A DNA stretch of 11,489 bases from an uncultured archaeon (lineage in GTDB: Archaea > Asgardarchaeota > Lokiarchaeia > Sigyniarchaeales > SOKP01): the NCBI GenBank assembly GCA_964388035.1, contig CAYLZE010000139.1, positions 1-11,489 on the forward strand, in the 5' to 3' direction. Positions 180-11,489 of the stretch are shown here, piece by piece; within the stretch, counting starts at the first letter, position 1, and each line of letters opens with the position of its first letter. The translations under genes were made by a program, and so were the position numbers. The notes under the pieces are model-generated. The model was not told the origin of the DNA and did not search any database. It worked only from the letters and a program-made list of their open reading frames with translations.

Positions 180-1199
180 TTGAAACAAATCTTAAAAAAT
201 GAGAGTGACTTTTTGTATATCATGGAGAGCAAAGAAAAACTGCCATCAATGAAATTTTCGGGAGCTTCAATGCTTGGGAATATTAGTACAAAGCGAGATA
301 TTATAATCTCTGGCGGCTGTAAAGTCGATGGTGATATTGAATGCAATTCCTTTAAATGCTCTGGTTCCGTTGTTGGAGCCGGAAATATAACCGCTCATGG
401 TAATTTTAAAACTTCCGGGAGAATGAAGTTAGAAGGTAACGTTAGAAGTGAAGAAACTTTTCATTCCTCGGGGTCAGTTACCATCAACGGGTCAGTATAT
501 TGCGGGAAGATTTTTGATGCTTCGAGCTCCGTAAATATTAGTGGCTCTGTTCAATGTGGTGATAAATTTCTCTCGTCAGGTTCCGTAAAAATAGGGGATT
601 TTGTGGAGTGTGGAGGAGATTTTAAGAATTCAGGAGGAGCTAAAATTCAAGGTAAGCTTTTCGTACATGGCTCTCTACATTCTTCAGGTCGAATGAAGGT
701 ATTTAGCTTTATTAAATGCGAAAAAGATGCAAAATTTAGTGGAAGTACAAAAGTTCAAGAAGATATCACGGTAAATGGTGTCTTAAATGCATCGGGTCGT
801 ATAGAAGGTGAATTTGTCAAAGCCAAAAAAGGAATACAATTATCTGGAAAAACGGAAATTTTCAATGATTTAGAATCTGAAGAGTATATCAATGTCATGG
901 GGGGATTAAGAATTGAAGGAGATCTCATTGCGAAACGAGTCTTTTTTAAAGATAATAAGTTTTGGATTATTAATATTAATCCGGATAAATATTATCGTGA
1001 GATAAAAGGCAACATTGAAGCAAAAGAGAGTGTTGATATTAATCGTGCATTTGTAGAAGGAAATATAAAAGGGAGAAGCGTAAGTATAGGAAGGTACTGT
1101 AAAATTATAGGGAAGATCTTCTATGCTGATAAGATAATTGTAAACAAATCTGCCGAATTAGCAAATGATCCTATTAAAATTGATGCTAATCAGCTCTAA
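180..1199 (+). CDS. Polymer-forming cytoskeletal (bactofilin-like, YhbE/YhbF-type) right-handed beta-helix protein
   Basis: 339-aa ORF from TTG 180; in-frame ATG at 222 is an alternative start. It has about 11 tandem 17-18-aa repeats of the form (F/L)xxSGxxx(I/V)xGx(V/I)xxxxx, e.g. FKCSGSVVGAGNITAHGN, FKTSGRMKLEGNVRSEET, FHSSGSVTINGSVYCGKI, FLSSGSVKIGDFVECGGD. The C-terminal 'VEGNIKGRSVSIGRYCKIIGKIFY' segment is typical of extended bactofilins. Confidence 0.8.
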   Translation: MKQILKNESDFLYIMESKEKLPSMKFSGASMLGNISTKRDIIISGGCKVDGDIECNSFKCSGSVVGAGNITAHGNFKTSGRMKLEGNVRSEETFHSSGSVTINGSVYCGKIFDASSSVNISGSVQCGDKFLSSGSVKIGDFVECGGDFKNSGGAKIQGKLFVHGSLHSSGRMKVFSFIKCEKDAKFSGSTKVQEDITVNGVLNASGRIEGEFVKAKKGIQLSGKTEIFNDLESEEYINVMGGLRIEGDLIAKRVFFKDNKFWIININPDKYYREIKGNIEAKESVDINRAFVEGNIKGRSVSIGRYCKIIGKIFYADKIIVNKSAELANDPIKIDANQL

Positions 1200-1320: not shown

Positions 1321-3363
1321 TTAACTATTTAGAGCTTTTTCATGAGCTTTTGCATTTAATGGCAATAAGGGAGCACAAGCCATTAGCTTGGTCACATCCC
1401 CCTCAATAACATAGGTTCCTGCCATAGTAGCTTCAATAGGATTAGATTCTCCAGAATTCACTTTCTTAATGGTCTCAAAATTAGTTTTATGTAAGATTTT
1501 CGGGACTTCAGGTCCAGAATACTCTCCCATCCCCCATTTCATTGAATCTTTTTCGATTTTTTGCCAATAATCCATCTCTGGTCTATCGCTAATCTTGTAT
1601 TGAAATACCAGAGGAGCAACTGGTTCTAACATCGACTTCAAATCTGGCAGCTCATTATAAGCTTTCATGAAGCGTGTAAGATACGCTTCCCATTCTTCTT
1701 TAGTGTTCATTTTAGACATCACATCTTCTTGTTTTTTATTATTTTCTTTTATTTTTATAGGTTCAAGTTTCAAACCTTGGTTTTCAGCCTTTTTATTAAT
1801 TAAATTAGTTCCATATGGTAATGATTTTATAGATTTAATTTCCGCCTCGCTTATATAGAGCGAGGGATCAATACCTTTTTCAATGCAAAAATCAAGGAAA
1901 TCATGCTTAAAAGGCTGAGGAACTAATTGAAACGTTATTGAGATAATCAAATCCTTAGTAACGACTCTCATGTTATTTTTCTCTGCTGTTCTTTCAGCAG
2001 TAAATCCAATTCCTTTTTTTGCAGCGAGGTGCATGCTTTCGGGGACAATTATCATGGTTTCTTCAAGGAATTTTTCTGCATCAGAATCCCATTGAATTCC
2101 AAAATAGGAATCGCTTTCTGCTTTCTTAATGGGAGGTTCTAATTGTCTTTTTTCTTTGGGAAGATACATTTCTCCCCTATTTAAATAATCGTAGAGAAAA
2201 GCCATGTAATTTCGATAGGACTGATTACTTGCTCCCGAAGGAACGAAATACGCTTTATCAGCGAATTGATCGCAATAGTGACATGTTATCCCGCAGATTT
2301 CTGCACATTTCTGTCCTTTATAGGGAAGATTTTCGATAAAATCTTCTAGCTCCCCACTCTTGAGCTGGGCATTAAAATCAGGGACGCTTAACAAGATGCT
2401 TTGATTATCTGCATCCACACCCATTTTTTTCTCTCTAATAGAAAATTCCGAGAATTGATTTCCCGCCAGTTCCAAGGGATCTGAAACAAAAGAATACCCA
2501 TTAAAAATTTCACCTATATTACCCTCGTGAAATTTTCTACTATAGGCGGTTAATGCTCGATACAACCAATCAGTACCATATCGTCGTCCTGAGATTTTAA
2601 AATAATCAATCCCAATATCGATGTATTTATCTATATCTGAAGGTTGAATCCATTTGCACATGATTATTTGGGAGGGATCGAGTGCTTTTTGATTTTGACA
2701 AGCAATGGTTGCCCAATCATTGTAATATCCTTCTAATTTATCATGGGTTTGACTTGCATGCGAGCATTCCGTATAATGAAAGAATCGAAATGGACATTCA
2801 TTTAAGCAACAATCATTCGTTAATAATTCTATATCACATTTTATTTTCTCTCTAATCTCCTTGAGTAGGGGAAAATTTCGATTTAACATTATAGATAAAG
2901 TAATAACTCCCTCCCGTCCCACTATTTCCTCCCATTCTAAAGCTCTTGAGAGGGAATTCACTTCAGATATGACCGAAACTTTCAATTTTAATTTTGGATG
3001 GTAAATTTTTGCAAAGTTCGCTAAATATGGATCCGTTACTGTTAAATATTCAACATTTAAATCTTCTAACCAATCTAATTCTTTGAGTGCTAAAGCTTGT
3101 TGCTCTTGATTAAACATGTAAAAACCTAAACACATGCCATTCCATAACCACGTAAATTTTAACCCCATTTCATGGACTTTATTAATAAAATCTTCAATTT
3201 CGGATTTTTGCCTTTTTGCCATTAAGAAAAATGGTCTGCCTGACCCTGTAAAACTTAGATCAGAGGTTCCATACAAATCATGAACTTTTTCAATTAAACC
3301 TGGTTCTTCTCCGATTTTATTTAATAAATCCATTTTCCAGTTACATGCTAGCGATATTCTCAT
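1321..3363 (-). CDS. U32-family Fe-S protein (putative O2-independent hydroxylase) fused to a PCP_red/DUF2621-like module and a C-terminal SCP2 lipid-binding domain
   Basis: 680 aa. Residues 1 to ~400 carry U32 signatures: LWNGMCLG, VTDPYL, KVSVISEVNS, LNRNFPLL, NDCCLNECPF-x3-H-x4-SH, WIQPSDIDKY, GIDYFKISGR, and a C-terminal CAEICGITCHYC Cys cluster. Residues 423-503 are the shared module (IQWDSDAEKFLEE...VP...AERTAE...VPQPF...GID). Residues ~549-680 are SCP2-like (SGESNPIEATMAGTYVIEGDVTKLM). The start overlaps the upstream stop (ATGA). Confidence 0.85.
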   Translation of the reverse strand: MRISLACNWKMDLLNKIGEEPGLIEKVHDLYGTSDLSFTGSGRPFFLMAKRQKSEIEDFINKVHEMGLKFTWLWNGMCLGFYMFNQEQQALALKELDWLEDLNVEYLTVTDPYLANFAKIYHPKLKLKVSVISEVNSLSRALEWEEIVGREGVITLSIMLNRNFPLLKEIREKIKCDIELLTNDCCLNECPFRFFHYTECSHASQTHDKLEGYYNDWATIACQNQKALDPSQIIMCKWIQPSDIDKYIDIGIDYFKISGRRYGTDWLYRALTAYSRKFHEGNIGEIFNGYSFVSDPLELAGNQFSEFSIREKKMGVDADNQSILLSVPDFNAQLKSGELEDFIENLPYKGQKCAEICGITCHYCDQFADKAYFVPSGASNQSYRNYMAFLYDYLNRGEMYLPKEKRQLEPPIKKAESDSYFGIQWDSDAEKFLEETMIIVPESMHLAAKKGIGFTAERTAEKNNMRVVTKDLIISITFQLVPQPFKHDFLDFCIEKGIDPSLYISEAEIKSIKSLPYGTNLINKKAENQGLKLEPIKIKENNKKQEDVMSKMNTKEEWEAYLTRFMKAYNELPDLKSMLEPVAPLVFQYKISDRPEMDYWQKIEKDSMKWGMGEYSGPEVPKILHKTNFETIKKVNSGESNPIEATMAGTYVIEGDVTKLMACAPLLPLNAKAHEKALNS
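1855..2097 (-). repeat. Shared ~80-aa module, copy 1 (internal, between U32 and SCP2)
   Basis: IQWDSDAEKFLEETMIIVPESMHLAAKKGIGFTAERTAEKNNMRVVTKDLIISITFQLVPQPFKHDFLDFCIEKGIDPSLY; W3, P19, A34, P60, F63, G75, D77, Y81 in register with the other copies. Confidence 0.8.
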
Positions 3364-4517
3364 TTTTCCTTTTTTCCTACTCCTTTTTGAATTTCGCCTA
3401 TTTTTTTATTTATCAAAGTAAGCATTCTTTCTTTTTGATTTGGATCCTTAACTATTATCTTTTTATTGAAATCACTACAGTATTGACTTATTTGCTCCTC
3501 GAAGGGAAAAGGAGCATTATATGGAAAATCATGACAGAAATCTTTAACATTTAAAGAATTGAACTCGTAAATTGACGCATTCATCGTATTTGGATCCCAA
3601 TAATCTCCGTAAGGAGTAGGAATCCGAATATAATCGAATAAATTGAGATCTGTGGATTTCTCCATGTAAGATTTCAAGATATTCATGATTTTCGAAACTG
3701 ATAATTGATATGTGGAGAAAAAGAAATAATTAAAGCCTAGATTTTCATATTCAATAATATTCCAAGGAGAAACCCAACCACCTTTTAAAAAGCTAACAGG
3801 TTTCTCAATTCGCTGCTTCCAACAATTTAATAGGGAATAATCATAACCATCTTGAACATCTGATACATTCATTTGATCCCAAAAGATAGGTGAATTAATT
3901 GTTCTATGACTTTGTAAATTATGATGTTGATACCAATAGATACACCCCCAATTACACCCAATATTTAAGGGGATTATAAAATCCAACGATTTTCCGTTGT
4001 TTGACTGAGCTTTCATCTTCATGAAATTTTTGAGAGAGTTAAAAGATCTAATAATATCGGGGTGGAGAATAATAGAATGTGCACCAATGTTTGAAAAAAT
4101 TCTTGCTCGATTCATTGATGTAATATATTGGGAATATGATACGTAGATCTTCGCTCCTTGATACTGTTCCTTAAAAAACCCAACATTATTGGGAGATGAT
4201 AGTAAAATTTCGGAATATCCTATTGTTTTTAATGATTGTAAGAGTTGCATTGTAGCTTTATTATGTTCCGAATGAGCTTCAAGATTACCTTGGCAAGTAG
4301 AGTCCAAACCGGCTATAGGTATAATGCCCATTTCCTGAATAACTTTTGTATATTCTTCAAATTCTGAAAAAGAGTACTGCTTAAAAGGCAGGAAAATCGA
4401 ACTATTTCCAATCGGGGTATTAGGGACGTGAACTACCACGTGACTAACTGGTATCTTCTTTTCTTGAATTTTATAGATTAAATCTTTATTATAATTTCCT
4501 TCGAGTACAAATTTCAT
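3360..4517 (-). CDS. Divergent U32-family protein (probable partner subunit of the adjacent U32 enzyme)
   Basis: I place the start at ATG 4517 (MKFVLEG, 385 aa), with GAGGA at 4531-4535, rather than 4622, which would overlap the upstream gene. It is colinear with the 680-aa U32: LDSTCQGN, IILHPDIIRSF, NIGCNWGCIYWYQHHNLQSH (same N-x-x-C-x3-C-x5-H-x4-SH), LLNCW, WVSPWNIIEY. It lacks the KISGR motif and most of the C-terminal Cys cluster. Confidence 0.75.
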   Translation of the reverse strand: MKFVLEGNYNKDLIYKIQEKKIPVSHVVVHVPNTPIGNSSIFLPFKQYSFSEFEEYTKVIQEMGIIPIAGLDSTCQGNLEAHSEHNKATMQLLQSLKTIGYSEILLSSPNNVGFFKEQYQGAKIYVSYSQYITSMNRARIFSNIGAHSIILHPDIIRSFNSLKNFMKMKAQSNNGKSLDFIIPLNIGCNWGCIYWYQHHNLQSHRTINSPIFWDQMNVSDVQDGYDYSLLNCWKQRIEKPVSFLKGGWVSPWNIIEYENLGFNYFFFSTYQLSVSKIMNILKSYMEKSTDLNLFDYIRIPTPYGDYWDPNTMNASIYEFNSLNVKDFCHDFPYNAPFPFEEQISQYCSDFNKKIIVKDPNQKERMLTLINKKIGEIQKGVGKKEK

Positions 4518-4560
4518 ACTTATACTAAAATCCTCATTTTTAATTAAAAATAAAAAAAAA

Positions 4561-5733
4561 TTATTTATAGGAGTTAATTCCCGCTTGAGCCCCCATGAGA
4601 AGGAAATCCACCATTGTTCCATTGTAATCGTTCTCTATCTTATAGTAGATTCCTTTAGGAGCAAAGGTAACTCCATATATGAACTTATGAATTTCACTTT
4701 GAAAGGGGGAGGTATCCACGAATTTTTTAATAAGCGGATGAAGTTCTGTAGGCACCTCATCAGCATTTTGACATGTTATGCCAAAACAAATCCTTTCAAC
4801 CTTATTTGAATCCCAACTAAAGGTATAATTTAGATGAGCAGCTTGAGCACATTTTTCCATGATTTCATCAGAAAGTAAGGTAAATCCTAAATCACTAACT
4901 AATCCTTTACAAGCATCTAATGTGTTGTTTTCCGGATTGCTGAGCATGAAATAGATATTAGTGGTTTTATTGGAAAAATCGAATGCAAAAAGACTAAAAA
5001 TATCTAATCCATGTTTTTTAAAATAATTACTATAATTTTGAACACTTTTAGGATAATATTTCATCGAAAATATCGGATCGATGGTTCCTGGTACCACAAA
5101 AGGCCATATTTTGGATAACCCTATTCGAGTATCTAAATCAATTCCGTATCCCATGATTTGAAATGTATTTATCGCTTCTTTTATCGCATCATGAATTATA
5201 TGACCGTCATTTTGAATAAGCCCTTTCTCAATCGCTGTAGTATATGCATCAGGATCATGCATTTGCATTAATTCTACATATCGTATCGAAACATCTCTTT
5301 TTTCCACTGGTTTAGTAGTAGTACGGATAGATATGGAAGAACCCGTGAAAAATTGTTTATAGGCTTCCAAAACTTGCCATATTGCCTCTTTATCGTTGCT
5401 AACACCAACCATACTGCATATTTGTATGGTATCCTCCACCATTCGTTCGAGATTATTATTGCATTTGAAATCTCCCTTTACTTTTGCTAAATATCTATTA
5501 TAATCTACTCCTAGATCCTTTAAATCTTGAATCATAGTAGGCTGAAAAGCGGGGGGAGTAACTTCAAATAATGCTGCTACTAAATCCACTTCTGAAACTT
5601 CCGTTCCTTTCCTCTCCGCGCATTTCTTCTCTGCACCACCAGCCAATGCTGGTCTTATGATCGGTCGAACAGTTTCTGGTATTCTATTGACCGCTTTTTC
5701 ATAAAGATTTCTAACATCTTCATTCCATTTCAT
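4561..5733 (-). CDS. Soluble aromatic prenyltransferase, ABBA/PT-barrel family (NphB/CloQ/PTase_Orf2-like), with an N-terminal PCP_red/DUF2621-like module
   Basis: 390 aa. Residues ~92-390 match the NphB-type motif order recalled from memory: GIDLD..GLSKIWPF (cf. AIDGE..GFKKTYAFF), FKKHGLD (FARYGLD), DFSNKTTNIYF (DYKKRQVNLYF), LVSDLG (LVRELG), TFSWDSNKVERICFG (TLNWETGKIDRLCFA), IYGVTFAPKGIYYKIENDY (VYGLTLSPKEEYYKLGAYY). Residues 1-81 are the shared module. Confidence 0.88.
   Translation of the reverse strand: MKWNEDVRNLYEKAVNRIPETVRPIIRPALAGGAEKKCAERKGTEVSEVDLVAALFEVTPPAFQPTMIQDLKDLGVDYNRYLAKVKGDFKCNNNLERMVEDTIQICSMVGVSNDKEAIWQVLEAYKQFFTGSSISIRTTTKPVEKRDVSIRYVELMQMHDPDAYTTAIEKGLIQNDGHIIHDAIKEAINTFQIMGYGIDLDTRIGLSKIWPFVVPGTIDPIFSMKYYPKSVQNYSNYFKKHGLDIFSLFAFDFSNKTTNIYFMLSNPENNTLDACKGLVSDLGFTLLSDEIMEKCAQAAHLNYTFSWDSNKVERICFGITCQNADEVPTELHPLIKKFVDTSPFQSEIHKFIYGVTFAPKGIYYKIENDYNGTMVDFLLMGAQAGINSYK
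5491..5733 (-). repeat. Shared ~80-aa module, copy 2 (N-terminal on the prenyltransferase)
   Basis: MKWNEDVRNLYEKAVNRIPETVRPIIRPALAGGAEKKCAERKGTEVSEVDLVAALFEVTPPAFQPTMIQDLKDLGVDYNRY. Confidence 0.9.
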
Positions 5734-5800
5734 TTTTTAAACCTATTTAAATCCTATTACTTTTTGGTTATTTTATTCAATTTTTATGTATATTCTCATT

Positions 5801-7216
5801 TTATGTCTGATATTTTGCAAATTGAATATTACTCAATTCCGCAAAACCATCGGGATTGTTTATCCCTAATCCAGGTGCCATCCACCGGGTATTAATGGAA
5901 CAATATTCTCTAATTACCTTAAAAAGTTCAGGTTCTTTGATATTTGGGGATATATAGAATTTTGGTCTTAGTAGATTTTGGTTTTCTTGTATTATGCCCT
6001 CTTGTTCTGCTAATAACTGAAGTTGGGTGTGAGGATAAATTCGTAAGCCAATAAAAAGCAGTACATCCCCATCACCTTGCCATGCTCTTGCTTTATAACT
6101 CTCGATAGTTTGTAATGAATCGAGAGAAGTGCGGACAGTCTCTAAGGTTTCTTGCGGTCCACCCACTATCATGTGAATTAATTGTTCTATCTCGAGCTCA
6201 AAGCATTTCTCAGACGTAAGGATTGCATCTTCGCTTAATCGATCTTTTTGCATGTATTGAAGCATTTCATTTGACAATGATTCCATTCCCGTTGCCAAGT
6301 GTATTGCCCCACTTTGTTTCATTAACGGCATTATATCAAGAAAATTTTTATCCGGAACATAATTTGCTCCCCAATTTAAATCAAGATCTTTCTTTACTAT
6401 TTCTTGACATAAACTTTTAATATATTCACGATTTAAATTAAAGACACTATCAACAAAAAAAACATTTTTTATTCCATAATTATTTATCAATGAATCTATT
6501 TCTTCTACAACTTTTTTCTGAGATCTATATCTTACATTTGAGCCCTCGATATATCTGTAACTGCAATAAATGCAGTGTTTAGGACACCCTCGTTTTGTTT
6601 GGATATTGCCCCAAACTTCCCCATTTTTATCTAAAGGGTTAATCAAATATGCTTTATTATCAATTAGTTCTCGAGCGGGGTTTGGTAAATCATCCAAGTT
6701 ATTCACTCGCCAAGGAGGCTTCTCATGATAATTTCCCTTGGAATCTAAATAACAAATTCCCTTTTCTAATTTTCGAATATCTTCGCCATTTTCTATTTTT
6801 TTTAAGATTTCAGCAAACACATATTCCCCATCGCCGATAACACCGTAATTATGATTAAGATCTTTTAAAATTTCTTCGGAAAAAATTGAAAATCCCGCTC
6901 CTCCGAGAATAATGGGAATTTCTGGCTCAGCAATTTCCTTAATGTACTGAATTACATTTCGAGCTGGTAAATAAAAAAATAAATTTCCAGGATATGTTGT
7001 TGAATCTATATTACGTAAGGTAATTCCAATGACATGTGGGCTAAAATTTTCAATAGCTCTTGAAATATCATTTCTCGAATCATTACTATTTGTTAAATCC
7101 AGTATTTTAACTTGATGACCTTGACTAAGTAAATAAGAGGCAATATATGCTTCTCCTAATGGGGGTGCCATGACATGAATTAACTCTCTACTCACTGAAA
7201 TCATTAATGCTCGCAT
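5801..7216 (-). CDS. Cobalamin-binding radical SAM protein (class B; probable C-methyltransferase)
   Basis: Likely start is ATG 7216 (MRALMIS, 471 aa) with GAGGA 7 nt upstream. N-terminal B12-binding Rossmann motifs: PPLGEAYIASYL, GITLRNIDS, IILGGAGFS, GDGE. Radical SAM core: QTKRGCPKHCIYC (CxxxCxxC), FVDSVFN, GMES, GGPQET, GLRIYPHT, PKFYISP. Confidence 0.9.
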   Translation of the reverse strand: MRALMISVSRELIHVMAPPLGEAYIASYLLSQGHQVKILDLTNSNDSRNDISRAIENFSPHVIGITLRNIDSTTYPGNLFFYLPARNVIQYIKEIAEPEIPIILGGAGFSIFSEEILKDLNHNYGVIGDGEYVFAEILKKIENGEDIRKLEKGICYLDSKGNYHEKPPWRVNNLDDLPNPARELIDNKAYLINPLDKNGEVWGNIQTKRGCPKHCIYCSYRYIEGSNVRYRSQKKVVEEIDSLINNYGIKNVFFVDSVFNLNREYIKSLCQEIVKKDLDLNWGANYVPDKNFLDIMPLMKQSGAIHLATGMESLSNEMLQYMQKDRLSEDAILTSEKCFELEIEQLIHMIVGGPQETLETVRTSLDSLQTIESYKARAWQGDGDVLLFIGLRIYPHTQLQLLAEQEGIIQENQNLLRPKFYISPNIKEPELFKVIREYCSINTRWMAPGLGINNPDGFAELSNIQFAKYQT

Positions 7217-7258
7217 GTTCAAATCCTCGCTATATTTGTAATTTTATTTCAATTTTAA

Positions 7259-8668
7259 CTATTTTTTTTCATTTTCAACAATTTCAATTTTTTTATCTTC
7301 CAATGAATCTTCCATTGGATCATGATCATTTTCATGCCAGCAATAGGGGAACGAAGCGAAAAAGTCTCCCGTTTCACATTCCGTATGAACCCTACAACCT
7401 CCATGACAATATTTTAGATGGTGGCAGGATGCACATTTACCCGTTCTTTTTCCATCTCTGATATCTTTAAAAATTTGAGAATTTAATATATCTTGAAAAT
7501 CGTCCACTAACGCATTGCCTAGAGTCAGTTTTGTAGGATATCCGCAAGGATAAATTGTTCCATCAACACCTATCCCCATCATCGTTCTACAAGCCAAGCA
7601 TCCAACACCCCATTCAATTGCGGTTAATTCTTTATCATCTTTTGGCATTTCCATAAAAGGGGTCATTTCATAAATTTCATATGCAGGAAGAGTTCCTGCT
7701 TCTCCATTTCTAATGGTCTCTATTGCGTGTTTATATTTGAATTTATAGAGTTTTTTATATTCTTCTTGACTAAGCCCAATTTCATTCCAATAGGTAGCTG
7801 CGCGGTTTTGCTTCACAACCGCTCTAAAGTAGGGTTGAGCGCCCCATTCTTCCGATAATGTTTTTAACTCTTCCAATTCATTGATGTTTTGTTTCATAAC
7901 GGTAATTGAACTACACACGAATAGCCCATACTTTAAACAATTTTCTATAGCTCGCTTTGCGTATGTTAATGAATCGGAAAAACCTCGTATCTTATCATTT
8001 TTTTTGGGATCTGCACTATCAAAACTGATAAACACGTGACTCATGTTATACTCCTTGCACATCTTTGCGAACTTATCATCAAATTTAGTACCATTCGTAA
8101 TTATGGCATGGTAATATCCCTTTTCACTGCAAAATTTCATAATATCTCCTATATCTTCTCTTAACGTTGGTTCTCCCCCAAACCAGATAAAGCATGCATG
8201 ACGTCCTTGTTCTCTCAAGCCAGATTCGACATTTTCAATAATTTGACACCATTTTTGGGATGATAATTCTGGTCTTGGTATCATGTCATCAGCAGCACAA
8301 TGCAAACAATTCATGTTACACCGATCGGTTATATACATTGCAAAGTGTATGTTTCCGGGATGAAAAGCTTCTTCTAAGGTGTCCCAAGAACATTCGATTC
8401 GATCTCTAAGCTCTTTTAATTCCATGTATCTTGTCACGTCTATTCCTAGGGAAGTTAAATCATTGACCATCATCGCTTTAAACGCTTCCGGAATAATATC
8501 GAAAATTCCCGTGATCAAATCCCCGTCTTCTATGTACGATCCGTTTCGATTAAGACATCTCTTTTTTGCTGCTTCTACTATTTGGGGTTGTACTGCAGGA
8601 CGAAAACCATCAGGAATTTGGTTTACGATCCTTTCAAATAATTCTTTTGTATCTTTATTCCATTCCAT
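7259..8668 (-). CDS. Radical SAM/SPASM-domain protein (paralog 2) with an N-terminal PCP_red/DUF2621-like module
   Basis: 469 aa. CNMNCLHC (CxxxCxxC), GGEPTLR, TNG, ISFDS. SPASM Cys array GCLACR...IYPC...LGN...KCASC..LKYCHGGCR...PYCW. Residues 1-81 are the shared module. Confidence 0.9.
   Translation of the reverse strand: MEWNKDTKELFERIVNQIPDGFRPAVQPQIVEAAKKRCLNRNGSYIEDGDLITGIFDIIPEAFKAMMVNDLTSLGIDVTRYMELKELRDRIECSWDTLEEAFHPGNIHFAMYITDRCNMNCLHCAADDMIPRPELSSQKWCQIIENVESGLREQGRHACFIWFGGEPTLREDIGDIMKFCSEKGYYHAIITNGTKFDDKFAKMCKEYNMSHVFISFDSADPKKNDKIRGFSDSLTYAKRAIENCLKYGLFVCSSITVMKQNINELEELKTLSEEWGAQPYFRAVVKQNRAATYWNEIGLSQEEYKKLYKFKYKHAIETIRNGEAGTLPAYEIYEMTPFMEMPKDDKELTAIEWGVGCLACRTMMGIGVDGTIYPCGYPTKLTLGNALVDDFQDILNSQIFKDIRDGKRTGKCASCHHLKYCHGGCRVHTECETGDFFASFPYCWHENDHDPMEDSLEDKKIEIVENEKK
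8426..8668 (-). repeat. Shared ~80-aa module, copy 3 (N-terminal on radical SAM paralog 2)
   Basis: MEWNKDTKELFERIVNQIPDGFRPAVQPQIVEAAKKRCLNRNGSYIEDGDLITGIFDIIPEAFKAMMVNDLTSLGIDVTRY. Confidence 0.9.
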
Positions 8669-8681
8669 ATTTTTTCACTCA

Positions 8682-10046
8682 TTAGCAGTTTTCATGAGAA
8701 TGATCATCTTCATGCCAACAAAAGGGAAACGGCGCCAGAAAATCACCCGTTTGATTTTCCGCATGGACTCTGCACCCACCACCGCACATTTCTAAATGAT
8801 GGCATGTTGAACATTTTCCTTTTATTTTTCGATCTCGTATCGCTTTAAACATTTCCGATTCCATGATTTCATCAAAATCTTGCTTAAGCACGTTCCCTAA
8901 GGTTAGGACCGAGGGATAATCACAAGGGAAAAAATCTCCATTTATATCTATACCAGAGACAGATCGACATGCTTGGCATCCGACCCCCCATTCTAAAGCA
9001 GTTCGTTCTTCATCATTAAGTGGGCATTCCATGAACGGAACCATGTCATAAGTGTAGAATTTATTGAGAGATGAAGCCTCCCCTTTTCTAATTGCTTCTA
9101 CCACATTTTTATATTTAAATTCATAAAATGTCTTGTATTCCTCGTGATTAAGTCCTATTTCCTCCCAATTTTTTTCTGCATTTCTTTGCTTAATAACTGC
9201 TCTGAAATATGGTATTACACCCATTGATTCCAATTCATTTTTAATAATTTCTAATTCATCAAAGTTCTCTTGTTCAACCGTTGCTGTACATATGACAAAA
9301 TGCCCATACTTTAGGGCATAATTAATTGCTTGTTCAGCTTTTTCTTTGGCATGGGGTACACCCCTAATTTTTGCAGCTCTTTCTGGAATCGTACTATCGT
9401 AACTGATGAATACATGGCTCATTTTAACCTCAGCACATAGCTTTGCAAGTTCTTCATCAAAAAGCATGCCGTTTGTAGAAATTGCTTGATAATATCCTTT
9501 TTCGCCACAATATTTTATTAAATCTTTTAAGTCCTTGCGTAGGGTGGGCTCTCCACCAAACCAGATATAACACCCGCGTCTCCCGCGCTTTCTTAGCGTT
9601 CCTTCCACATTTTCAATAATTTGAGTCCACTGTTTAGTAGTTAATTCTGGGCGTTTTTCCATTACTTCTGCGGCACAATGAAGACATTTTTGATTACATC
9701 TATCAGTTAGATACATGGTAAAATGATATACTCCTGGTAAAAATGCTCCACCTATTTCATCCCATGTTCGAGCATAATCCTTTCTAATATTGGATAATTG
9801 AATATACCTATCAGTATCAATGTCTAATTTTTTGAGATCCGCTACTACTGTTGGTTGAAATGCTTCTGGTGTTATTTCAAAAAGAGCAGAGAGGATATCA
9901 TCCTTTTCTATAAAACCGGAGTTCCTGAGTCGTGCGGTTTTTTCAGCCGCTTCTCGTAACATGGGTTTTACCGCAGAACGAAAAGCCTCAGGAACTTGAT
10001 CTGTTATTTTTACATATAGATCTTCCATATCTTTTGGCCAATCCAT
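8682..10046 (-). CDS. Radical SAM/SPASM-domain protein (paralog 1) with an N-terminal PCP_red/DUF2621-like module
   Basis: 454 aa. CNQKCLHC, GGEPTLR, STNG, ISYDS. SPASM array GCQACR...FFPC...LGN...KCSTC..LEMCGGGCR...PFCW. Residues 1-81 are the shared module. AGGTGA RBS lies 6 nt upstream of the ATG. Confidence 0.9.
   Translation of the reverse strand: MDWPKDMEDLYVKITDQVPEAFRSAVKPMLREAAEKTARLRNSGFIEKDDILSALFEITPEAFQPTVVADLKKLDIDTDRYIQLSNIRKDYARTWDEIGGAFLPGVYHFTMYLTDRCNQKCLHCAAEVMEKRPELTTKQWTQIIENVEGTLRKRGRRGCYIWFGGEPTLRKDLKDLIKYCGEKGYYQAISTNGMLFDEELAKLCAEVKMSHVFISYDSTIPERAAKIRGVPHAKEKAEQAINYALKYGHFVICTATVEQENFDELEIIKNELESMGVIPYFRAVIKQRNAEKNWEEIGLNHEEYKTFYEFKYKNVVEAIRKGEASSLNKFYTYDMVPFMECPLNDEERTALEWGVGCQACRSVSGIDINGDFFPCDYPSVLTLGNVLKQDFDEIMESEMFKAIRDRKIKGKCSTCHHLEMCGGGCRVHAENQTGDFLAPFPFCWHEDDHSHENC
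9804..10046 (-). repeat. Shared ~80-aa module, copy 4 (N-terminal on radical SAM paralog 1)
   Basis: MDWPKDMEDLYVKITDQVPEAFRSAVKPMLREAAEKTARLRNSGFIEKDDILSALFEITPEAFQPTVVADLKKLDIDTDRY. Confidence 0.9.
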
Positions 10047-10052
10047 ACTTAT

Positions 10053-10058
10053 TCACCT
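10053..10058 (-). promoter_or_regulatory. Shine-Dalgarno-like motif AGGTGA for the 454-aa radical SAM gene
   Basis: The - strand reads ...aaagaAGGTGAataagtATG. GGTGA-type cores are common in archaea. Confidence 0.6.
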
Positions 10059-10102
10059 TCTTTTTAATTTATTTTTCTTTTTGGTTTTCATTTAGTAATT
10101 TT

Positions 10103-10945
10103 TTAATTTTTAACATGGATAAAAAATGGTAAAAATAGTTTATCAGAACAAAAAGTCATTTCATTCCTTTTTTCAGAACAAGTCTTAATAGAGTGAATAT
10201 GGTTATTGGTTATTTTGTAATAAAAGAAGAAGAAAATGCGAGTATTTCCCAAAAATTTAAAAATAGAATGTTTATGAGAAAAAGTATAATAATTACGGGA
10301 TTTTTTAGATGAATCCTTAGAAGTTTTAATGGTTTTAACCCCATAAAAATCCCCATTCCTTTTAAATCTAATAGGAAATTTAGAAATTTCTTCTAGATAT
10401 TGAATTCGAAGTATATCTCGTTCTTTGAAGTAATTTAAGGGTTGAGAAAAATACAAGCCATTCGGACCAATATATTTTAATTCATTCATTGACTCTTGCT
10501 CGAAATTTGACAAATCTAGATCAAAAAGCTCCGGATGATAACCTAAATCGCAATACATTTCGAATTCTCTATAGGATAGGATATATATTTTTACATATTG
10601 GTAAACCAAGGATTCAGCGTGTAATATAATGTCTACAATAATGGTGATATCAATTAAATGCCCAACCGTGAAATTCATAATTTGAAATTCCTTCGGTAAG
10701 AAAAATAGGATATTGATGGTGGGAAGAGATGGAAAGAAAATTGAACTTCCGGAAGATATATAAGCATTGAATGACGATGAAAGAATGGATAAATCTCTCA
10801 GAAACATGTAGAAAAAGACAGCTGGCAGACAAGAAAAAATGAAAATTAGGATGAGAATTATTCTGATTCTATTTGAATTCTTATATCTATTCATCGTTCT
10901 TAAGTATTGTGGTAAATTTATGTCTATACTTTTAAGATTATTCAT
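10103..10945 (-). CDS. Hypothetical membrane-anchored protein
   Basis: 280-aa ORF whose ATG overlaps the upstream stop (ATGAATAA) and which ends 56 bp before the next gene. It has a hydrophobic segment at about residues 28-49 (IRIILILIFIFSCLPAVFFYMF) and a weaker one at about residues 95-115. No family recognised; the C-terminal third looks compositionally odd. Confidence 0.55.
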   Translation of the reverse strand: MNNLKSIDINLPQYLRTMNRYKNSNRIRIILILIFIFSCLPAVFFYMFLRDLSILSSSFNAYISSGSSIFFPSLPTINILFFLPKEFQIMNFTVGHLIDITIIVDIILHAESLVYQYVKIYILSYREFEMYCDLGYHPELFDLDLSNFEQESMNELKYIGPNGLYFSQPLNYFKERDILRIQYLEEISKFPIRFKRNGDFYGVKTIKTSKDSSKKSRNYYTFSHKHSIFKFLGNTRIFFFFYYKITNNHIHSIKTCSEKRNEMTFCSDKLFLPFFIHVKN

Positions 10946-11489
10946 TTAAGAGTCCATATTCTTTAAGGCTTTGTTTCATATCTGCTTGAAAAGGTCCCGG
11001 CGTTCCTTCCAAAAAAGCCATCCTCATATCTTCATTATTTACCTCTTGTCCCCCTCTCTTTTTTGCCTTTTCTTCAGCGAGAGATGAGATTGCCATTCTT
11101 GCCATTGATTGAAATTGGGAAGGCGTTAACTTAATTAATTCATCAAAAATTTTTACCGTTTCTGGATTCCAAGCAAATTTCAGGTTTTTTTGGTCATCTT
11201 GATCTCCAGAATTAATACCGAATTCACGACTAGTAATGATATTTTGAAGATAATTCTGAAGAGATTCTACGTATGCTTTTGATTTTTCCTCATCTACGAC
11301 AACAGCTTTCTTTGCCCATTCTTTGCAATAATTACATTCACCGCACATGGCTATACAATTTTGTTTCTTGAAAAATTCTATAAACCCATCTAATTTAGTA
11401 TTATCAATATACATCTTTGAAACCATCTCTTTCCCAATCGTTGTTCTCAAGTTGAGATTAGGATCTTTCTCTTGAAGTCCCCCAAAAGA
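10938..11489 (-). CDS. 3' part of a U32-family Fe-S protein with a C-terminal PCP_red/DUF2621-like module (truncated by the window edge)
   Basis: The frame stays open from the annotated TTG 11450 to the edge (SFGGLQEKDPNLN..., no stop). YIDNTKLDGFIEFF..CIAMCGECNYC aligns with LKSGELEDFIENL..CAEICGITCHYC at the end of the U32 domain of the 680-aa protein. It is followed by the shared module (FAWNPET...TPSQF...AEEKA...TPGPF...G). Confidence 0.75.
   Translation of the reverse strand, partial: SFGGLQEKDPNLNLRTTIGKEMVSKMYIDNTKLDGFIEFFKKQNCIAMCGECNYCKEWAKKAVVVDEEKSKAYVESLQNYLQNIITSREFGINSGDQDDQKNLKFAWNPETVKIFDELIKLTPSQFQSMARMAISSLAEEKAKKRGGQEVNNEDMRMAFLEGTPGPFQADMKQSLKEYGLLNE
10941..11177 (-). repeat. 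Shared ~80-aa module, copy 5 (C-terminal on the partial U32 protein)
   Basis: FAWNPETVKIFDELIKLTPSQFQSMARMAISSLAEEKAKKRGGQEVNNEDMRMAFLEGTPGPFQADMKQSLKEYGLLNE. Confidence 0.85.

Follow-up and report, generated by a model that had tools for sequence, protein, structure and literature searches.

A small helical module shared by enzymes of a lipid-type operon in Asgard archaea: a tentative assembly or hand-off adaptor

Introduction

RiPP recognition elements (RREs) are small non-catalytic domains found either alone or attached to unrelated enzymes of a given pathway, and they sit at the N-terminus of SPASM proteins. The docking domains of modular synthases and the dockerin-cohesin system are likewise small tethered domains, which serve solely to bring catalytic units together. 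The PCP_red domain is carried by both BchB (as in the Pfam family name) and BchZ, two proteins that we take to act at consecutive steps of bacteriochlorophyll synthesis. In ubiquinone synthesis, the Ubi enzymes go together with the SCP2 proteins UbiJ and UbiT; a multiprotein complex is organised by UbiJ, and several enzymes are proposed to draw on intermediates held by SCP2; in Zymomonas, ubiT and ubiU are fused and ubiV lies downstream (PMC6747719). Here, we describe an Asgard operon in which one small module is fused to most enzymes of an apparently lipidic pathway.

Results

The window, 11,489 nucleotides long, is an entire contig and has all its genes on the minus strand. The gene at 1321-3363 encodes a U32-module-SCP2 protein of 680 aa (Peptidase_U32 E 4e-9, SCP2 E 0.009) with orthologues in 11 annotated clusters. 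Its SCP2 lipid-carrier domain (residues 552-679, 1327-1710) was recognised by a weak Pfam match and by alignment to relatives, sharing 77% identity with the 128-aa SCP2 that G024 has as a free-standing protein; a 48-residue low-complexity linker separates it from the module, which is itself preceded by a shorter charged stretch. The gene at 3360-4622, which always adjoins the U32-module-SCP2 gene, encodes a divergent U32-like paralogue that lacks the module and has no Pfam match, and was identified by BLAST to U32 proteins (20-27% identity). Its true start is probably Met-36, near 4517, as judged from its orthologues (381-403 aa), which align from residue 36. A module and a PTase_Orf2 aromatic prenyltransferase (PF11468 E 8e-50) make up the 390-aa product of 4561-5733. 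The next gene (5801-7222) encodes a B12-binding radical SAM enzyme (Pfam) without module, whose top NCBIfam model is TIGR04072 (lipid-biosynthesis B12/radical SAM; 287.6 bits, under the cut-off of 360); a relative, P0112, bears a C-terminal module. Pfam assigns two module-bearing radical SAM/SPASM enzymes to 7259-8668 (469 aa) and 8682-10046 (454 aa), and for both the nearest NCBIfam models are of the AhbD/NirJ type, at scores far under the cut-offs. The gene at 10103-10945 is conserved in the clusters (24 homologues) and its product has no match in Pfam or NCBIfam; conservation is limited to the N-terminal ~125 residues, which are hydrophobic (stretches near residues 24-52 and 89-115), while the tail is variable. 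The remaining gene (10938-11489) is the 3' part of a U32 gene with a C-terminal module, truncated where the contig stops; its orthologues are complete in L034, L035 and L043, and complete orthologues have 450-472 aa and carry the module at the extreme C-terminal end.

A first-pass annotation of this DNA had proposed that an ABBA prenyltransferase, two SPASM radical SAM enzymes, a U32-SCP2 fusion and a partial U32 share a module in five gap-free copies with a set of invariant residues, and both the hosts and the copies are confirmed. The Pfam matches agree with the host assignments and, on the minus strand, five copies of an 81-residue module, on five enzymes from three unrelated families, align over 81 columns. 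W3, P19, A34, P60 and F63 are invariant in all five, G75 is present in four of the five, and D77 and Y81 in the four full-length copies. Pairwise identity between copies is 17-44%, and profiles built from four copies recover the fifth at E 3e-25 to 4e-8 (per nominal 20,000 proteins), so the likeness is not due to chance. The internal copy of the U32-module-SCP2 protein (1855-2097, residues 423-503; leave-one-out E 4.4e-8, DUF2621 E 0.0018, PCP_red E 0.1) represents the most divergent class, with R41 replaced by Q and D50 by L. The others are found at the N-termini of the prenyltransferase (5491-5733; leave-one-out E 3e-25, DUF2621 E 3.5e-4), of SPASM enzyme 1 (8426-8668; alignment and DUF2621 match, 27.5 bits for the protein sequence and 31.2 in six-frame search, cut-off 27.7) and of SPASM enzyme 2 (9804-10046; leave-one-out E 1.8e-24, DUF2621 E 0.0012), and at the C-terminus of the truncated U32 (10941-11177, 79 residues to the stop codon; leave-one-out E 3.4e-11, DUF2621 E 0.0039). 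In the 5.5-Mb genome beyond the window, a profile search returned one marginal extra match, at the C-terminus of a sulfatase (E 0.003). The positions conserved family-wide are W3, P19, P60, F63, small helix-packing alanines, and R41 and D50, which flank the strand loop. These residues look structural, so a conserved ligand site is not apparent, and conservation of this kind suits a protein-protein contact more than cofactor binding.

The module is predicted to be an independently folding, non-catalytic four-helix bundle with a helix-strand-helix core: modelled alone with AlphaFold2, the copy of SPASM enzyme 1 gives four helices at pLDDT 92.6 and pTM 0.80. In the model of the full-length prenyltransferase (mean pLDDT 90.8, pTM 0.80), a linker at residues 81-90 has a pLDDT of 58, which agrees, on pLDDT and pTM only, with a tethered module. 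Among 238 matches in 1.8 billion representative proteins, free-standing relatives of 80-100 aa are common, and tandem forms exist as well. That the module is independent of position was correctly anticipated: the prenyltransferase and the SPASM enzymes carry it at the N-terminus, U32 proteins carry it at the C-terminus or internally, it is C-terminal even on the prenyltransferase in one lineage (L045/P0008), and in a 762-aa fusion it lies between prenyltransferase and radical SAM enzyme.

The module belongs to the PCP_red/DUF2621 superfamily, in line with the two resemblances initially noted. Its first half (positions 1-49) is homologous to a genuine PCP_red domain (PF08369) that this genome encodes (hhalign 92%, E 6.5e-7), and PCP_red NMR structures match its modelled fold (2L09, Z 6.0; 2KRU, Z 5.4). 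Like the module, PCP_red is an appendage on Fe-S enzymes, as the C-terminal domain of BchB/ChlB and BchZ; however, the copies miss the cut-off of the family HMM (best 13.1 vs 32.5 bits) and possess two additional C-terminal helices (about 48-81). The whole-module match to DUF2621 (PF11084) is weak: all five copies match profile positions of about 52-138 (best E 6.6e-7), mostly under the Pfam cut-off, and the gathering score is attained by a single copy, in six-frame search only. Profile positions up to about 50, presumably a membrane segment in Bacillus proteins, have no counterpart in the module. The DUF2621 annotation is borne by the free-standing bacterial relatives of 80-100 aa, whereas here the domain is fused to enzymes. 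The literature search returned no paper on DUF2621 and none relevant on PCP_red; neither a function for PCP_red nor an interaction of the domain was found in the papers searched. The best structural matches are AAA+ lid (C-terminal helical) domains and the helix-strand-helix motif of the histone fold. The BchI lid (1G8P) scores Z 8.0 with an rmsd of 2.9 A for 71 residues, the lids of MCM, ORC, Rpt and FtsH score Z 6-7.5, Foldseek retrieves RuvBL lids and H2B at E above 0.07, and at the sequence level a histone and a Lon lid are weakly echoed at E about 0.09. This is a resemblance of fold only, with scores in the chance range for small helical bundles, and no P-loop ATPase domain precedes the module.

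Module copies number 4-10 per genome, all clustered, in 13 of 41 relatives and in 48 of 400 genomes of the phylum. The same genes are present in all 25 annotated Asgard clusters, and SCP2 in each cluster that is not cut by a contig end. Natural fusions (SCP2-module-prenyltransferase, radical SAM-SCP2, U32-module-SCP2 and prenyltransferase-module-radical SAM) join the components and thus suggest selection for physical proximity in the pathway. Searching for multi-copy, multi-family fusion within single operons, as had been advised, shows that the pattern holds across the 25 Asgard clusters and appears again in two further clusters derived from metagenomes. The 14-kb, 48%-GC L068 locus contains five copies, on a SPASM enzyme, a prenyltransferase-SPASM protein and three U32 proteins. 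The other is a type II aromatic-polyketide cluster (17 kb) in which adjacent HemN-type radical SAM and U32 genes each carry the module; its Lachnospiraceae label is that of a member of the cluster of its U32 protein. Neither locus shows SCP2, which consequently cannot be the universal partner. In addition, the bacterial U32-module genes L069 and L070 have no second module-bearing gene in the 3.8-10 kb of flanking DNA on each side, which means that the domain has to be of use to a lone enzyme as well.

Discussion

The first-pass annotation had proposed a candidate docking tag and had named recognition of a common carrier or scaffold by the module as one of several options; the copies do not behave as a uniform tag. 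In the module tree each enzyme class forms its own old and well-supported clade, and no conserved surface patch is evident across the copy classes. Separate clades at 17-44% identity are unlike what a single common receptor would be expected to impose. Because each class has its own clade and the residues conserved family-wide look structural, the module is not a uniform tag read by one receptor.

As our best reading, we tentatively propose that the module is an assembly or hand-off adaptor. Domain shuffling has placed it on most enzymes of one oxygen-independent pathway, comprising the aromatic prenyltransferase, U32-type (UbiU/UbiV-like) proteins, radical SAM enzymes and the SCP2 lipid carrier. 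The tethered module would act as a protein-protein adaptor holding these soluble enzymes with each other and/or with an SCP2-bound hydrophobic intermediate, and the enzymes, kept close, could hand the greasy intermediate from active site to active site. Each enzyme's copy would have its own co-evolved surface, so that the module would not be one universal tag. A small non-catalytic domain thus probably helps to keep an oxygen-independent lipid pathway together.

The same class-specific clades, long diverged and with class-specific conserved positions, are also what co-evolution of each copy with its host would produce, and an unlikely but serious alternative is that the module acts in cis. It would pack on, or transiently cap, the catalytic domain to which it is fused, or the one in a partner subunit of a homo-oligomer, and would gate or shield a hydrophobic aromatic substrate instead of linking different enzymes. 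The lone U32-module genes of bacteria suit such a role, as do fusion partners whose substrates are mostly flat and hydrophobic or aromatic (BchB/BchZ, HpaB-like, VOC, FMN reductase, prenyltransferase, U32). The substrate cavity of DPOR is covered by a helix from the C-terminus of BchB, which acts in trans (PMC4071322, PMC12022308); this helix may, however, lie outside PCP_red proper. Against a cis role, a single fold would have to serve as a cap for three unrelated kinds of active site, whether attached at the N- or the C-terminus, free-standing modules are common, long low-complexity linkers are present in the U32-SCP2 and NuoE-type fusions, and AlphaFold2 gives no confident placement of the module on the prenyltransferase barrel (linker pLDDT 58, pTM 0.80). 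It is less probable still that the module docks an electron-transfer partner (ferredoxin, flavodoxin or reductase) common to the cluster's Fe-S enzymes. Since the prenyltransferase does not require electrons, assembly or carrier recognition had been favoured, and this is a fair argument, which extends to the class I methyltransferase and VOC hosts found elsewhere. Yet the hosts are mostly Fe-S or flavin enzymes (radical SAM, U32, BchB/BchZ), relatives of the module occur in two copies on NuoE-type 2Fe-2S proteins whose neighbouring genes are NuoF-like, ferredoxin and GltD-like, relatives are also joined to FMN reductases and to a PNPOx-like flavoprotein, and in the Lachnospiraceae-labelled cluster an FMN reductase gene immediately follows the U32-module gene; these cases speak for a redox role. 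The 25 Asgard clusters, for their part, contain no module-bearing or conserved redox-carrier gene, and the genome has no further clear module copies.

The module could, in principle, be a passenger without specific partner, a stable helical bundle that aids the folding or solubility of oxygen-sensitive enzymes, since every residue conserved family-wide looks structural and no partner was found. We consider this improbable: each class is kept on the same enzyme over many genera and distant lineages, the fusions repeatedly involve enzymes of the same pathway rather than random ones, and free-standing and tandem forms exist. Even less credence can be given to a RiPP-type pathway in which the module binds the leader of a ribosomal peptide or protein substrate modified by all the enzymes. 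Its distribution, as separate or attached domains among unrelated enzymes within an operon and N-terminal on SPASM proteins, is that of RiPP recognition elements, and the product of 10103-10945 combines a conserved N-terminal part with a hypervariable tail. Nevertheless, no conserved small ORF was found in or beside the 25 clusters, the conserved part of that product is hydrophobic and membrane-like, the predicted all-helical module differs from the winged-helix/beta-sheet RRE fold, and SCP2, the lipid genes nearby (LuxE, CDP-alcohol phosphatidyltransferase, glycosyltransferase) and a prenyltransferase of the small-molecule PTase_Orf2 type all indicate a lipidic small molecule.

An assembly or hand-off adaptor would share the distribution logic of the PqqD-like RREs while departing from them in its predicted all-helical fold, in that a search of the 25 clusters and their flanks yielded no precursor peptide, and in an apparently lipidic pathway. 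With synthase docking domains and dockerins, which use defined complementary pairs or a dedicated scaffold, the likeness is limited to that of a small domain predicted to be tethered. As regards the UbiT/UbiU/UbiV system, PMC6747719 names no DUF2621/PCP_red module on these proteins, the operon prenyltransferase is a soluble ABBA-type enzyme where that of Ubi is UbiA-type, and the operon product need not be a quinone. The two systems nonetheless have in common a U32 pair, an SCP2 carrier and oxygen-independent chemistry on a prenylated aromatic, and the ubiT-ubiU fusion of Zymomonas with its downstream ubiV is paralleled by the genes at 1321-3363 and 3360-4622.

Results

The window spans a whole contig (11.5 kb) in a genome of 5.5 Mb, and all genes of the cluster lie on its minus strand. 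Five module copies (1855-2097, 5491-5733, 8426-8668, 9804-10046 and 10941-11177), read from that strand, align over 81 columns with zero internal gaps at an inter-copy identity of 17-44%, and any four copies, made into a profile, recover the one left out, with E between 4e-8 and 3e-25 (nominal 20,000 proteins). W3, P19, A34, P60 and F63 are invariant in all five, G75 is present in four, and D77 and Y81 occur in all four copies that extend to those positions. Pfam identifies the hosts as a PTase_Orf2 aromatic prenyltransferase (4561-5733), two radical SAM/SPASM enzymes (SPASM-1, 7259-8668, and SPASM-2, 8682-10046), a U32 protein ending in an SCP2 domain (1321-3363) and a second U32 protein, truncated where the contig stops (10938-11489). 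The gap-free copies, the conserved residues and the host enzymes proposed in the first-pass annotation were thus all confirmed. Convergent to the cluster, the window also encodes a 339-aa bactofilin-repeat protein (180-1199, plus strand; PF04519, E 1.4e-16). A module profile search of the remaining genome detected no further clear copy, only a marginal match (E 0.003) to the last ~65 residues of a sulfatase (G000:C111:13786-13977, locus L006), where W, P, D, P and F are all kept at their places; this may be a sixth, very divergent copy.

Relationship to DUF2621 and PCP_red

DUF2621 (PF11084) is the best-scoring family for all five copies, with protein-level scores of 27.5, 21.0, 19.2, 18.7 and 17.6 bits against a gathering cut-off of 27.7; the copy at 8426-8668, which scored 27.5 bits as a protein, reached 31.2 bits, above the cut-off, in a six-frame genome search. 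The matches cover about positions 52-138 of the 139-position profile and leave its N-terminal third uncovered. For PCP_red (PF08369), HMM scores of the copies all fell below the cut-off of 32.5 bits, the best being a single copy at 13.1 bits (E 0.1), and in the genome search the window scored 12.7 bits versus 54.7 bits for a true member elsewhere in the genome. Nevertheless, hhalign matched a 127-sequence module profile to that genomic PCP_red domain with a probability of 92% (E 6.5e-7) over module positions 1-49, and the module model resembles the PCP_red NMR structures at Z 6.0 (2L09) and Z 5.4 (2KRU). The hhalign match and the weak DUF2621 matches, mostly below cut-off, bear out the two resemblances named in the first-pass annotation, of the first half to PCP_red and of the whole module to DUF2621. 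By profile comparison, the first half is the PCP_red core (helix-helix-strand), and two additional helices after it make the whole DUF2621-like. Both Pfam labels are also found on ESM Atlas clusters.

The genuine PCP_red domain (G000:C1:33253-33381) lies near the C-terminus of its host (locus L071, ORF 457-1920), a non-enzyme type of host that appears to be a tandem universal-stress protein (judged from sequence, not Pfam-scanned) and whose gene adjoins an ABC-transporter-ATPase-like gene. We found no paper on DUF2621, and PCP_red or PF08369 was named only in unrelated surveys, with no paper discussing it as a domain. In DPOR, BchB helix 398-420 touches the substrate in trans, and the PCP_red domain itself is not described (PMC4071322, PMC12022308).

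Fold and conserved residues

With the 127-sequence alignment, AlphaFold2 confidently predicts a bundle of four helices plus one two-residue strand pairing (pLDDT 92.6, pTM 0.80). The closest solved fold is the AAA+ lid of BchI (1G8P, Z 8.0), and the MCM, ORC, Rpt and FtsH lids score Z 6-7.5, values that are common for helical bundles. No Foldseek hit in the PDB reached E 0.001, the RuvBL lids and histone H2B that it listed being non-significant. A sequence search of the PDB gave nothing significant, the top entries being a Lon lid and a histone (both E about 0.09) and 2KRU (E 0.46). Because the Z values lie within the chance range for small helical bundles, the AAA+-lid likeness only describes the fold. 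Known AAA+ lids follow a P-loop AAA+ alpha/beta domain, whereas the window hosts are without any AAA-type domain according to Pfam and carry the module N-terminally in three cases.

Across the 127 family members, only W3, P19 and P60 are near-invariant; the other recurrent positions are small helix-packing alanines, F63 and L71, together with R41 and D50, which flank the strand loop. The residues that recur family-wide look structural, and a shared cysteine or other ligand-like motif is absent from the 127 members. In a full-length model of the module-prenyltransferase (mean pLDDT 90.8, pTM 0.80), residues 81-90 drop to pLDDT 58, consistent with a short, flexible tether to a domain for which the predictor found no placement on the barrel. 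The U32-SCP2 protein likewise has a 48-residue low-complexity linker between module and SCP2.

Distribution, fusion partners and history of the copies

The module family is rare: a profile search of 1.84 billion representative proteins gave 238 hits at E 0.001 or better. Many of these are free-standing proteins of 80-100 aa. The bacterial free-standing modules P0052, P0064 and P0034 lie on contigs of only 0.6-3 kb whose genomic context is uninformative. TPR-repeat proteins among the hits, with four to seven weak stretches each, mostly failed the re-search with the module profile and were rejected as helical-repeat noise. The fusion partners are prenyltransferases, on which the module is N-terminal except in one C-terminal case, U32 proteins, and radical SAM enzymes of the SPASM and B12 types; there are also a LuxC-module-SPASM protein, NuoE-type 2Fe-2S proteins with two modules joined by a low-complexity linker, and one HpaB-like, one class I methyltransferase and one PNPOx-like fusion. 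The ESM Atlas adds VOC/glyoxalase, FMN reductase and BchZ partners and a U32 cluster of 321 mostly bacterial members; its clusters of the window's own proteins are mostly labelled Promethearchaeota. In a phylum sample, 48 of 400 genomes, nearly all from the window's own family or class, contain the module, the highest count being 10 in one genome; the listed copies are clustered. At a bacterial locus (L065:8001-8927, plus strand), the linker between the two tandem modules of the NuoE-type proteins is Ala/Pro/Lys-rich and the genes adjoin NuoF-like, ferredoxin and GltD-like genes, apparently encoding a soluble electron-transfer complex.

Fusion of several copies to several enzyme families at a single locus occurs in 25 Asgard clusters (the window counted in) and at two outside loci. 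The first, a metagenomic contig of 48% GC (L068), carries five copies, on a SPASM enzyme, on three U32 proteins and within a 762-aa prenyltransferase-module-SPASM fusion (3121-5409, plus strand) that is followed by the three U32-module genes; such a fusion implies a common substrate for the aromatic prenyltransferase and its radical SAM partner. The second, a metagenome scaffold (L063, 1-17449), holds a type II polyketide cluster in which a HemN-type radical SAM enzyme and the neighbouring U32 protein each end in a module, followed by an FMN reductase gene; the protein cluster of this U32 includes a Lachnospiraceae-labelled member. This large anaerobic aromatic-polyketide cluster encodes a KS-alpha/KS-beta pair with an ACP and a cyclase, five radical SAM enzymes (three HemN-type, two B12), SAM synthetase and methyltransferases, besides the FMN reductase and U32. 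From these two loci, the tagging of several unrelated enzymes in one anaerobic aromatic pathway recurs. SCP2 was not seen at either of them. Some further bacterial U32-module genes have no module-bearing partner within the 3.8-10 kb examined on either side.

A maximum-likelihood tree separates the modules by host class into well-supported clades. Those of the prenyltransferase, SPASM-1 and SPASM-2 cluster with one another, and the U32 modules fall with bacterial U32 and free-standing forms. The host-class clades indicate that the fusions are old and that each copy diverged with its host, and on this tree the copies are not an interchangeable tag. A 75-aa free-standing module in a relative's genome (G024) was considered as a separate cluster component and rejected, since it is nested inside the SPASM-1 clade and is more likely a duplication remnant.

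The conserved Asgard cluster

The 25 clusters have in common a small membrane-like gene, module-SPASM 2, module-SPASM 1, the module-prenyltransferase and a U32 gene with a C-terminal module; a B12 radical SAM enzyme is usually present. SCP2 occurs in every annotated cluster not cut by a contig end, either as a free 130-aa protein or as the tail of U32-module-SCP2. Ahead of the latter gene there is, in every case, a very divergent U32 paralogue that lacks a module; the pair occurs in 11 clusters. In the window this paralogue is a 420-aa ORF (3360-4622, minus strand) without Pfam hit and with 20-27% BLAST identity to U32 hits. Its orthologues align from residue 36, so its start is probably Met-36, near 4517, in which case the 62-base overlap with the prenyltransferase gene would vanish. 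The small membrane-like gene found in all 25 clusters (10103-10945, minus strand, in the window) belongs to no known family. Conservation of its product is limited to the first ~125 residues, which include two hydrophobic stretches and the motif G-H-L-I-D-I; the other 100-150 are hypervariable and of low complexity. It is possibly a small membrane anchor of the pathway.

Other natural fusions include SCP2-module-prenyltransferase, SPASM-SCP2 and a prenyltransferase that carries the module at its C-terminus. Genes often found beside the cluster encode a LuxE-like acyl-protein synthetase, a glycosyltransferase of family 2, a CDP-alcohol phosphatidyltransferase and another B12 radical SAM enzyme; the first three recur, together with zinc-ribbon membrane proteins, in the flanks of L034, L043, L051 and other related clusters, which suggests that the product is incorporated into a polar lipid. 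For the B12 enzyme of the window, the nearest NCBIfam model, below its cut-off, is 'lipid biosynthesis'. We found no paper on this cluster or on an aromatic prenyltransferase in Asgard archaea.

Discussion

We propose that the module would act as a protein-protein adaptor holding the pathway enzymes and an SCP2-held intermediate together, a reading to which we give slightly less than even credence. It is favoured by the evidence for tethering (the low-confidence segment in the prenyltransferase and the low-complexity linkers), by the existence of free-standing and tandem modules, by the free position of the module on its hosts, by the absence of a conserved ligand site and by the recurrence of enzyme-enzyme and enzyme-SCP2 fusions. 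Complex prediction of the module with the SCP2 domain (ipSAE 0.00 in two runs, no controls) speaks neither for nor against binding. The class-specific divergence of the modules and the lone bacterial U32-module genes would rather fit the main rival, a cis-acting cap or stabiliser of each host enzyme; in view of the tethers and free-standing forms that favour an adaptor, we consider such a cap rather unlikely.

Fusion to NuoE-type and FMN-reductase proteins could point to a docking site for a shared redox partner, but this would leave the prenyltransferase unexplained and seems quite improbable. Least credible, to the point of being very improbable, is a peptide reader of the RiPP recognition element (RRE) type, as the intergenic space of the 25 clusters holds no conserved ORF of 18-100 aa, only low-complexity AT-rich ORF groupings, and the folds differ: PqqD-like RREs are winged helices whose three-stranded sheet pairs with the leader peptide, whereas the module has four helices and a two-residue beta bridge.

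An adaptor would be the non-peptide counterpart of the RRE, a portable marker of enzymes working together. It is tempting, if somewhat doubtful, to extend this to the PCP_red/DUF2621 domain as a general and hitherto unnoticed assembly module of anaerobic biosynthesis. The domain would then tag enzymes that pass a hydrophobic aromatic or tetrapyrrole-like intermediate from one to the next, namely BchB and BchZ of bacteriochlorophyll synthesis, U32 and HemN-type enzymes of clostridial polyketide clusters, and the five enzymes here. In Asgard archaea it would organise a soluble metabolon with an SCP2 carrier at its centre, for an undescribed prenylated aromatic lipid or quinone made independently of oxygen. 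Knowing what the module does would give an annotation to a Pfam family of unknown function and account for the unexplained tail of BchB and BchZ, and the module could mark anaerobic aromatic pathways in genome mining.

From the genes present, the inferred product is a prenylated aromatic lipid formed without oxygen, which may be quinone-like. The operon is conserved and would form an undescribed oxygen-independent Asgard route in which a soluble aromatic prenyltransferase accompanies a UbiTUV-like trio; it bears on the redox-lipid repertoire of the archaeal relatives of eukaryotes. In UbiT/UbiU/UbiV-type hydroxylase systems, four conserved cysteines bind a 4Fe-4S cluster in each U32 subunit and a prenylated aromatic is hydroxylated. 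In gene arrangement, the two adjacent U32 paralogues of the window (1321-3363 and 3360-4622), together with SCP2, match UbiU, UbiV and UbiT. UbiT, UbiU and UbiV have been defined as such a trio and a ubiT-ubiU fusion is known (PMC6747719), which parallels the U32-module-SCP2 fusion of the window.
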